From an uncultured Candidatus Peribacteria bacterium (GTDB taxonomy: Bacteria; Patescibacteriota; Gracilibacteria; Peribacterales; Peribacteraceae), in contig CAZDKL010000004.1 in assembly GCA_964506185.1 (NCBI GenBank), positions 179 to 64,178 on the forward strand: DNA of 64,000 nucleotides. The letters run 5' to 3'. The notes beneath the pieces are model-generated. The model saw nothing but the letters and a program-made list of their open reading frames with translations. It was not told the DNA's origin and did no database searches. The position numbers and the translations under genes are program-made. This document shows, piece by piece, positions 1-2,099 of this stretch (positions are counted from its first letter, which is position 1; each line of letters opens with the position of its first letter).

Positions 1-377
1 ACTCATTTATTGCAACCGTGCACACAAGGTACACGGCAGTCCTTATCCCGAAGTTACGGACGTTGTTTTGCCGAGTTCCTTGACACGATATTACCCGTTC
101 GCCTTGGTCTACTCGACCACCCCACCGGAGTTGGTTTGCGGTACGGACTCACGGATTTCTGTGAGCGATGTTTTTCTTGGAAGCAGAAACAGCCAGACTC
201 TCCCGCCTTGCGGCGGACATTTGGTATCCACACTCAGCTCATCCGGGGGATTTGCCTCCCGGAATCAACACTTCATGTGTTACACGTGCAGTCAATGCAC
301 ACGCTCTGGTACTCCCGCTCCGTTACAACGCTCCTAGGATGACAGCATCCTTTTTCATTGACATGTTCCTCACCACT

Positions 378-469
378 TTGGAATCTAATTTGAATCTGGA
401 ATATGGAAGCTAGAATATGGAATATTATTCCAAATTCTAGATTCTAGATTCTAGATTCTAAATTCCAAA
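378..469. repeat. Simple-repeat hairpin forming an expansion segment inside the 23S rRNA
   Basis: The arm ttggaatctaatttgaatctggaatatggaagctagaatatggaat faces attccaaattctagattctagattctagattctaaattccaa. It lies between conserved 23S blocks (ggatttgcctcccggaatc ... ggtacaggaatattgacctg) that are ~150 nt closer together in E. coli. Confidence 0.8.
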
Positions 470-1852
470 ATGGTAAGGAACAGAGGCCGATAAAACTATC
501 AGCTAACACCCTCTGGTGATCTCCATGAGGTACAGGAATATTGACCTGTTGTCCATCGGTTACGCCTTTCGGCCTGGCCTTAGGACCGACTAACCCCACG
601 CCGATTTACGTTGCGTGGGAAACCTTGGGGATTCGGCGGGCAAGATTTTCACTTGCCTAGTAGTTACTCATGCCAACATTCTCACTTCCGTCCGCTCCAC
701 AATACTTCGCAGTACTGCTTCACTGCTGAACGGAACGCTCCTCTACTGCGACCTACTAATGTAGGCCACTCATTGCTTCGGTTTATCGTTTCGCCCCGAT
801 ACATTTTCGGCGCACGAATGCAATCGACCAGTGAGCTGTTACGCTTTCTTTAAAGGATGGCTGCTTCTAAGCCAACCTCCTGGTTGTCGATGCATTCGTA
901 CTACCTTTTCCACTGAACGATAATTAGGGACCTTAGCAGATGATTAGGGTTCTTTCCCTTTCGTCAACGGCAGTTAGCTGTCGCTGACTCACTCCCGATG
1001 CTGAAGAGTTGGTATTCGGAGTTTGTCAGGATTTGGTAGGTCGGAAAGACCCCCGCATCCAAACAGTAGCTCTACCCCCAACTGTATACATCGAGGCTGC
1101 CCCTAAAGGCATTTCGAGGAGAACCAGCTATCTCCGGGTTCGATAGGCTTTTCACCCCTAACCACAGGTCATCCCCCAGTCTTGCGGCACTGGTGGGTGC
1201 GGGCCTCCAATCGTGTTCCCACGACCTTCACCCTGCCCATGGTTAGCTCACCCGGTTTCGGGTCTTGCGCATGCGACTCAAAAATCGCCCTATTCGGACT
1301 CGCTTTCGCTCCGGCTTCGGCTTTTAGGCCTTAACCTGCCACATACGACAAACTCGTTGGCTCATTATGCAAAAGGCACGCCGTCACCCAATAAATTGGG
1401 CTCCGACTCTTTGTATGCATCACATTTCAGAGACTATTTCATCCCCCTTCCGGGGTGCTTTTCACCTTTCCCTCACGGTACTATCCGCTATTGATCTCTG
1501 TACCTATTTAGCCTTAGGTGGTGGTCCACCTAGATTCAGGCCGGATTACACGTGTCCGACCCTACTCAGGAAATCCCTACTGTGTATTACTTTTTCGGCG
1601 ACGGGGCTCTCACCCTCTTTGGCCGTCCGTTCCAGGATCGTTTGCCTAAAGTAAAAACAATCAGATATTGGGCTCCTACAACCATCCAAATTAATAATAT
1701 GGAATTTGGGCTGTTCCCTTTTCGCTCGCCACTACTAAGGGAATCTCTATTGATTTCTTTTCCTCTGTTACATGAGATGTTTCAGTTCACAGAGTGACCG
1801 TCTGGTCCTGTTTATGATTTCATTGAAGATTGATGATACTACTGATTCTTTG

Positions 1853-1912
1853 TTAGTGAGTAGTGAGTAGTGTGTAGGTTTCTACTACTCACTACCCACT
1901 ACACACTCGTTT
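1853..1912. repeat. Simple-repeat hairpin forming a second expansion segment in 23S domain I
   Basis: ttagtgagtagtgagtagtgtgtagg / ctactactcactacccactacacact lies between the conserved atgtttcagttc and ggtttccccattcgg blocks (~120 nt longer than E. coli). The 19-mer ttagtgagtagtgagtagt is identical to 17752-17770. Confidence 0.8.
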
Positions 1913-2099
1913 TCAAGGAAATAATAAACAGAACCAGACATCCTCCCATTACGGAGGACAGGTTTCCCCATTCGGAAATCCCCGGTTATAACGCCTGCCT
2001 AGCGGCTTACCGAGGCTTATCGCAGCTGGCCACGTCCTTCGTCGGAGTACAGAGTCGAGGCATCCATGTGATGCAATGAGTAACGTTCTTATGATGACT

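Follow-up and report, generated by a model that had tools for sequence, protein, structure and literature searches.

The stretch of DNA analysed here, which we call the window, is a 64-kb part (contig C4, positions 179-64178) of a metagenome-assembled genome (MAG) of an uncultured Candidatus Peribacteria bacterium. The assembly amounts to 1.355 Mb in 51 contigs, is 98% complete and has a G+C content of 42.8%, and the best matches of its CysS protein are from Candidatus Peribacter and other Peribacteria MAGs, at no more than 87% identity. At its left end the window holds the 5′ part of a 23S rRNA gene in which two additional segments are found, segment A in helix 10 (H10) and segment B in domain III at the junction of H54 and H55, each with inverted arrays of a tandemly repeated heptamer at its tip. 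The gene extends 178 nt beyond the window on contig C4 and leaves that contig at approximately E. coli position 1952; its 3′ part lies at the end of contig C25 (E. coli 1932-2760 = C25:27346-26076, by blastn with the E. coli 23S as query), where a 5S gene is located 3′ of the 23S end. No 16S rRNA gene was found by Rfam in the 64-kb window and the 16S and 23S genes appear to be unlinked. As set out below, we consider it likely that the two segments are intervening sequences (IVSs) without an open reading frame (ORF) that belong to the same class of element as a set of cassettes elsewhere in the genome, the genes of which encode proteins of the family PF05635 (23S_rRNA_IVP or S23p, a four-helix bundle).

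Two array-tipped hairpins and the same sites in relatives

In the cmscan alignment segment A comprises 115 nt (window 1810-1924) in place of four model positions, and it occupies the loop of the hairpin after H9, a helix that corresponds to H10 (E. coli 148-176). The repeat hairpin is borne at the tip of a basal stem some 27 bp long (GUCUGGUUCUGUUUAU.../...AUAAACAGGACCAGAC), and in this hairpin Tandem Repeats Finder (TRF) detected period-7 arrays at 1854-1877 and 1884-1907. The extended H10 hairpin has a predicted folding energy of -66.2 kcal/mol (z = -8.1) and none of 200 shuffled sequences was as stable.

Segment B, which Rfam aligned with low posterior probability as 198 nt against 18 model positions, was placed by that alignment beside H58, a location we rejected. 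In the relative G008, 78 extra nucleotides sit with high posterior probability after model position 1457, directly past the 5′ strand of H54, and in a multiple alignment of nine genomes the (G/A)ACGGAG motif, the H57 hairpin and the GGCAAAUCC loop of H58 are all situated 3′ of the insert. These markers and the placement in G008 therefore locate segment B where H54 and H55 join, near E. coli position 1417. Between shared anchors around the segment the window has 414 nt and E. coli approximately 225 nt (counted by hand). About 78 nt of segment B is family-wide, so that only about 100 nt represents a genus-specific hairpin, and the basal stem of this hairpin (about 19 bp, GUUCCUUACCAUUUUGG / CCAAAGUGGUGAGGAAC) is common to the genus and to G022, with compensatory changes. 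Its tip contains TRF period-7 arrays at 392-425 and 427-469. For the 261-nt stretch 270-530, which includes segment B, we obtained -101.8 kcal/mol (z = -9.0), again with none of 200 shuffles as stable.

Two extra segments centred on simple-repeat hairpins, at about 378-469 and 1853-1912, had been proposed from the sequence before any search was made (hereafter the original prediction). Both are real features of the gene: the TRF arrays span 392-469 and 1854-1907, and alignment to the 23S covariance model, the check that had been suggested, assigns segment A to H10 and, by way of the homologue in G008, segment B to the H54/H55 junction. The accompanying statement that no ORF or intron core is evident also held, as there is no ORF in segment A or segment B and no Rfam intron family reaches its gathering score in either. 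Neither insert has the features of a group I or group II intron, the elements being 60-120 nt in length, where such introns have about 200 nt or more, and no intron family reaching its gathering score anywhere in the window.

Table 1. Coordinates of the rRNA inserts, related hairpins and matching cassettes; positions without a contig label are those of the window.
Feature	Position	Strand	Description
23S rRNA gene, 5′ part (about two-thirds)	1-2090	(-)	cmscan RF02541 LSU_rRNA_bacteria, 1367 bits, model positions 1-1791
Domain III expansion	325-517	(-)	between H54 5′ strand and conserved (G/A)ACGGAG motif (E. coli ~1417-1423)
Long hairpin in domain III expansion	364-483	(-)	120 nt in the genus; from fold and alignment
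Tip element 2, inverted TTGGAAT/TAGAATC heptamers	383-468	(-)	~6 units per arm
Extended H10	1800-1939	(-)	140 nt; E. coli has 29 nt and insert-free relatives 16-22 nt
Tip element 1, inverted TAGTGNG heptamers	1849-1909	(-)	~3.4 units per arm, 7-nt loop
AACAATC-word hairpin	2096-2175	(-)	inverted repeat of 24 nt, 88% complementary; TRF arrays 2100-2120 and 2152-2170
Intergenic hairpin, TAGTGAG/TAGTTGG family	17752-17834		shares a 19-mer with tip 1
Intergenic hairpin, TAGTGNG family	39699-39763		between divergent genes
Cassette matching tip 1	C5:21277-21642		PF05635, 128.8 bits; TAGTGNG arms; 5′ half of tip 22/24 and 3′ half 26/29 identical
Cassette matching tip 2	C11:2988-3374		PF05635, 122.6 bits; 5′ half of tip 38/43 (left arm) and 3′ half 34/41 (right arm) identical

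Is either insert a fixed feature of the 23S rRNA in this lineage? We aligned H10 from nine relatives and E. coli, and domain III from nine genomes, comparing the loci of the relatives by BLAST/MAFFT mapping and single-locus Rfam searches. The H10 insert is absent from G004, G005, G008, G013 and G022, which have the short hairpin (Table 1); the rRNA flanks of H10 in G005 are 96-98% identical to those of the genome studied here, yet G005 has no insert. Long H10 inserts tipped by tandem repeats of other words were found in G001, G002 (AACCATC(C)) and G021 (AATGTAG), while in G010 the hairpin is extended less, by about 60 nt, and no arrays were detected in the extension. The H10 basal stems of our genome, G002, G010 and G021 are related to each other and differ by compensatory changes. 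The presence of the H10 insert is thus sporadic among close relatives, as it is for IVSs. In domain III, repeat tips of differing words occur in the aligned genus members (our genome, G001, G002 and G004) and in G021, whereas G022 has only a plain stem and G008 a 5-bp hairpin. In the comparison with relatives that had been proposed, both inserts lie at helix tips, and close relatives either do without them or carry other words in their place.

Additional sites are occupied in the relatives. Hairpins of 140-220 nt with arrays are present in G001, G002 and G004 at points equivalent to positions 386-409, 693-702 (H25), 805-810 and 1324-1341 (H45) of our rRNA, all of which are empty in our genome, and a single word may recur within one 23S gene: AATTGAC is used at three sites in G001 (386, 693 and 1324) and at two in G004, and TTAGCAA at two in G002. 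The 23S gene of G002 also contains, in H63, a complete PF05635 ORF (about 118 aa) on the rRNA sense strand between inverted arrays of CAACTNA-type heptamers (L039 3103-3620, G002:C49), which makes this cassette an ORF-bearing IVS outside the classical sites. Neither a PF05635 gene nor a repeat tip was found in G008 and G022; the other eight genomes examined have 4-21 PF05635 genes each. Two apparent inserts in the 23S gene of G005, the closest relative, of 381 nt and 308 nt (L038 1043-1423 and 1894-2201; G005:C16), proved to be runs of N.

PF05635 cassettes and gene-less hairpins

The genome encodes 16 PF05635 proteins, 15 of them above the curated cut-off, which are 21-57% identical to each other (median 31%). 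The protein of the C11 cassette matches a solved structure, PDB 2GSC (Xanthomonas XCC0516), with E = 7e-20. Most of the 16 genes are bracketed by inverted arrays of a 7-, 8- or 9-mer and each has its own word. The full form of this class of element is, then, a PF05635 gene between inverted tandem arrays of a cassette-specific word of 7-9 nt. One such cassette (C6:47137-47541, arms TAGCTTT/AAGCTAT) is directly beside, and convergent with, the RNase III gene (C6:47578-48225, 238.7 bits).

For each of the two rRNA tips a cassette with matching arms could be identified in the same genome (Table 1). Identity between tip and cassette arm is 83-92% and includes sub-terminal sequence outside the repeat word; the match of tip 2 to the C11 cassette, for instance, takes in the non-repeat end TATTCCAGATTCAA(A)TTA(G/A)AT, and when the arms were swapped as a control only 7 nt matched. 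Neither insert encodes a PF05635 protein, and the inverted tandem-array ends of the cassette class are present in both tips. Each tip thus looks like a cassette from which the gene has been removed so that the two arms abut.

Gene-less hairpins of the same kind abound outside the rRNA. Seven is the commonest tandem-repeat period in the genome (284 TRF arrays), and the top period-7 word, ACTACTC/GAGTAGT, is the word of tip 1. Complementary arrays are found within 120 nt of each other in 45 pairs for period 7 and 25 for period 8, compared with 1-2 same-strand control pairs. Merging leaves at least 71 hairpins that lack a gene; their median length is 72 nt and almost all of them are intergenic: 3 of the 71 lie inside ORFs of at least 150 aa, though such ORFs cover 83% of the genome. 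Both rRNA tips belong to families dispersed in this same genome, that of TAGTGNG being present at about 20 loci. What relates these hairpins to the cassettes is their words: 255 of 670 free arrays of period 7, 8 or 9 match a cassette word with at most one mismatch (158 of the 270 heptamer and 85 of the 161 octamer arrays), whereas words shuffled as a null gave 95 ± 8, with a maximum of 115, an enrichment of about 2.7-fold. On sequence grounds, the intergenic hairpins are gene-less forms of the IVS-protein cassettes.

The original prediction had pointed to a 19-mer common to the second segment and an intergenic hairpin at 17752, to words shared with 39699-39763 and, more tentatively, to a link between the inserts and a family of intergenic hairpins. 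The shared 19-mer is TTAGTGAGTAGTGAGTAGT, found without mismatch at both 1853-1871 and 17752-17770; copies with two mismatches occur at 39705-39763, and none would be expected from shuffled sequence. The link to the hairpin family extends beyond low complexity, as is apparent both from the matches of the tips to non-repeat sequence in the cassette arms and from the abundance of the relatives' own words in their own genomes. Sequences related to the H10 tip of G002 are scattered over about 40 places in G002 (72-86% across some 90 nt), and our genome has none. Similarly, the H10 tip of G021 has about 20 relatives in G021, where its word brackets a PF05635 gene (G021:C68:1518-1832); a second PF05635 gene of G021 has TAGTGNG arms (C1:12103-12420). 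Among 61 genomes of the family, hits to TAGTGNG number 30 in our genome and 35 in G021; three other genomes have 16, 12 and 7 and the remainder 0-4, with controls using the reversed pattern near 0.

The intergenic sites mirror the rRNA sites in that the site persists and the word turns over. At the site orthologous to 39699-39763, G006 has the same TAGTGNG hairpin and G005 has a hairpin of the AACTAGTT word, and at the site orthologous to 17752-17834 G005 has a hairpin of the AATTCTC type.

Nature, origin and fate of the inserts

The original prediction had also described an opposite picture, in which the extra nucleotides would be lineage-wide, covarying helices that resemble the intergenic repeats only through low complexity. 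Part of that picture is present, in that the basal stems covary and the 78-nt expansion is family-wide, whereas the tips turn over and match dispersed repeats and cassettes. We conclude that the two segments are likely to be ORF-less IVS elements of the PF05635/heptamer-cassette class. A DNA-level process would repeatedly place, or rewrite, the current word family of a genome at hairpin tips that already exist, with the cognate PF05635 protein as the obvious candidate for the factor that gives word placement its specificity. As part of the pre-23S rRNA transcript, the hairpins would stand out from helices at the surface in the form of long, nearly perfect duplexes, which RNase III would cut out without religation, leaving a 23S rRNA that is fragmented but functional.

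How do these inserts compare to known elements? IVSs in 23S rRNA have been known since 1990; their S23p/PF05635 ORF is without an assigned function, and the origin of the IVSs themselves is unclear. Like the ORF-bearing IVSs (that of Coxiella burnetii in helix 45 with S23p, and those of Leptospira, Brucella and Xanthomonas), the inserts described here are at the tip of a 23S helix and have complementary termini that form a long stem; unlike them they have no ORF and are at H10 and H54/H55 instead of H9, H25 or H45, and their excision is a prediction. In this genome, moreover, the cassette class lies for the most part elsewhere than in the rRNA (16 genes, plus 71 or more hairpins that lack a gene, among ordinary genes), a distribution that we did not find described for the hosts of classical IVSs. 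The short tandemly repeated repetitive (STRR) heptamers of heterocystous cyanobacteria, together with those in P6b of the Nostoc tRNA-Leu(UAA) group I intron, form hairpins that are mostly intergenic and also occur in structured RNA genes and introns, with words that vary by strain at the same site. The hairpins studied here share with them the tandem heptamers, the mostly intergenic location and the presence inside structured RNA, although the phylum differs. A cyanobacterial source, which the STRR-like repeats might have suggested, does not fit the genome size of 1.36 Mb or the relatedness to Peribacteria. Repetitive extragenic palindromic sequences and bacterial interspersed mosaic elements (REP/BIME), Correia elements and Rickettsia palindromic elements (RPE), all of the kind resembling miniature inverted-repeat transposable elements, are likewise dispersed, short, palindromic and intergenic and comprise multiple families; the elements here differ from them in that a 7-9-nt word repeated in tandem makes up the arms, the gene carried by the full form encodes a four-helix-bundle protein rather than a transposase, and no target-site duplication was seen. 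With the IVSs of the Enterobacteriaceae (Salmonella helix 25/45, about 80-110 nt) the inserts have in common that they are short, ORF-less, sporadic stem-loops; their sites differ. To our knowledge neither tandem-heptamer arms nor a dispersed family in the same genome has been reported for the enterobacterial IVSs. Short ORF-less IVSs of the Salmonella type are extended stem-loops, sporadic among close relatives, that leave the ribosome functional (PMC2672173).

The closest precedent for the arrays is the S23p-bearing IVS of Coxiella burnetii, the stem of which contains three to four tandem heptamers, GACAGAT, and is cut by RNase III at the first repeat (PMC4990558). In Coxiella the heptamers are next to the PF05635/S23p ORF; here the arms of the tips match PF05635 cassettes and G002 has a full cassette in its 23S gene. 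A literature search for a published link of STRR or other heptamer hairpins to PF05635 or to IVSs gave only this Coxiella paper (PMC4990558). With respect to the Candidate Phyla Radiation (CPR, Patescibacteria), to which the Peribacteria belong, Tsurumaki et al. (2024) describe the short (<200 bp) ORF-less insertions that are frequent in 23S genes as uncharacterised and suggest that they are probably IVSs, and they report 23S_rRNA_IVP ORFs inside some CPR rRNA insertions (PMC11270868). The short insertions are from the same clade as our inserts and are the same kind of object. The words "repeat" and "hairpin" have zero occurrences in that article, and in the parts read we found no link of the short insertions to PF05635 cassettes outside the rRNA (PMC11270868). 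What is new here is that gene-less copies inside a 23S gene have identifiable cassette mates in the same genome.

Do the hairpins remain in the mature ribosome? We lean slightly towards excision, by analogy with other IVSs, because the genome encodes RNase III and the hairpins have long stems, which at about 19-27 bp or more should be good substrates for the enzyme. We know of no experimentally characterised bacterial IVS with a long terminal stem that escapes removal by RNase III. For Coxiella this removal has been demonstrated in a paper that cites the same for Salmonella, Leptospira and many Alphaproteobacteria (PMC4990558), and CPR rRNA insertions are reported to be removed from transcripts (PMC11270868). 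The H10 insert is, in addition, dispensable in close relatives. All of this argues against the alternative that the inserts are expansion segments that stay in mature 23S rRNA, where they extend H10 and the H54/H55 expansion at the surface, the tips being either tolerated passengers or of some structural benefit. We nevertheless regard retention as a substantial possibility, albeit one to which we assign somewhat less than an even chance, since the basal stems remain paired through compensatory changes across genera, the H54/H55 expansion is family-wide, and a domain III hairpin is found in all four of the same-genus genomes that could be aligned there (our genome, G001, G002 and G004). The actinobacterial H54a, an insertion at the same junction, stays in ribosomes.

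Could the hairpins instead have arisen in place, by slipped-strand expansion of heptamers and correction of palindromes through intrastrand template switching, with no mobile element and no connection to PF05635? Fast local turnover could produce differing words at the same rRNA and intergenic sites in different genomes, and neither a target-site duplication nor a transposase was found, although no systematic search for transposases was made. Such an origin is hard to reconcile with the same word plus sub-terminal non-repeat sequence at 20-40 dispersed loci in one genome, with tips that match both arms of specific cassettes, with the excess of cassette words among free arrays (255 versus 95 ± 8), with one word in three helices of the 23S gene of G001 and in two of that of G004, and with the patchy occurrence of the TAGTGNG word across genera, and we consider it improbable. 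Far less probable still is that the inserts are artefacts of assembly or binning, that is, chimeric joins induced by repeats in the rRNA gene of a MAG. The genome is indeed a MAG of 51 contigs and its 23S gene is split over two of them at E. coli 1932-1952, but both inserts are inside a 64-kb contig with collinear rRNA on either side, they are positioned exactly at helix tips with pairing preserved, and in relatives, which were assembled independently, these sites have homologous basal stems and are built in the same way.

Several observations weigh against the interpretation of the segments as ORF-less IVSs of the cassette class. No target-site duplication was seen at the approximately 20 TAGTGNG loci with flanks, and no transposase or defined element end turned up with the hairpins, although transposases were not searched for systematically; the mobility of the hairpins is therefore deduced from their distribution alone. 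A test of strand asymmetry (G-U versus A-C) for selection at the RNA level gave no consistent stability excess of the sense strand: sense and antisense strands fold equally well, and the palindrome is therefore a feature of the DNA, with no sign that the tips have been selected for their fold as RNA. For the word of the G002 H10 tip (AACCATCC) no cassette was found, there being no PF05635 gene beside any of its approximately 40 copies in that 94%-complete assembly. A co-phylogeny of words and proteins was uninformative, as the protein of the G021 TAGTGNG cassette is closest to the C5 protein by a single bit (119 versus 118). The classical IVS helices are H9, H25 and H45, and neither H10 nor the H54/H55 junction is among them; at that junction, moreover, H54a is retained in mature actinobacterial ribosomes. 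The compensatory changes in the basal stems across genera fit a retained structural helix as well as they fit a processing stem, and excision is predicted by analogy alone.

If the segments are IVSs of this class, what places the words? We offer, as a speculation that we think rather unlikely, that every PF05635 protein recognises a 7-9-nt word of its own, repeated some 4-6 times in tandem, and drives, without a transposase, the writing or conversion of that array into hairpin tips that already exist, whether in rRNA helices, introns, rRNA leaders or intergenic stem-loops. The solved Xanthomonas S23p structure is a homopentameric toroid (PMC4990558). Were PF05635 proteins to write words in this way, it would explain the nature of 23S IVSs, the role of S23p and the origin of the heptamer hairpins of bacteria, including cyanobacteria, as well as the occurrence of different words at one site in different genomes. 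The locus provides a direct link, within one genome, between gene-less 23S hairpins, PF05635 cassettes with matching arrays and a family of intergenic hairpins that numbers over 70. A candidate cognate word can thus be assigned to each PF05635 paralogue, making tests of cognate versus non-cognate binding straightforward, and a concrete hypothesis is at hand for the long-unexplained STRR-like heptamer repeats. On a practical level, these inserts have an effect on phylogenies based on rRNA, on the design of probes and on the assembly of MAGs in CPR bacteria.

Other repeats and the rest of the 23S rRNA gene

Immediately outside the 23S gene, the AACAATC-word hairpin (Table 1) is in the pre-rRNA leader, 6 nt upstream of the 5′ end of the mature 23S rRNA, and its word matches an array that adjoins a PF05635 gene (cassette C10:34356-34859). 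The same word recurs in the 3′ part of the gene. There, at about E. coli position 2500, we observed an ORF-less, group-I-like intron of about 414 nt (C25:26336-26750; L064 1345-1761), which scores 30.3 bits (E = 6.5e-6) against Rfam Intron_gpI, below the gathering score. A hairpin of the AACAATC word forms one of its peripheral stems, an arrangement that parallels the heptamer repeats of the Nostoc tRNA-Leu intron.

With regard to the break in the 23S gene, the start of C4 and the end of C25 share an overlap of about 20 nt at E. coli 1932-1952. The break is close to positions 1917 and 1931, known sites of CPR introns, and a strain-variable intron may have broken the assembly at this junction.

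Two further sets of repeats were noted in the window. An array of about 11 units of the octamer CAACCTAT, with a super-period of 23 nt, is located at 3522-3620, at or over the start of a methyltransferase gene (2774-3532, minus strand). Additionally, perfect heptamer arrays of GGGAACC (4.6 units) and ATCCCCG (4.9 units), 16 nt apart and not complementary to each other, lie at 40371-40451 inside the ORF 39782-40930.

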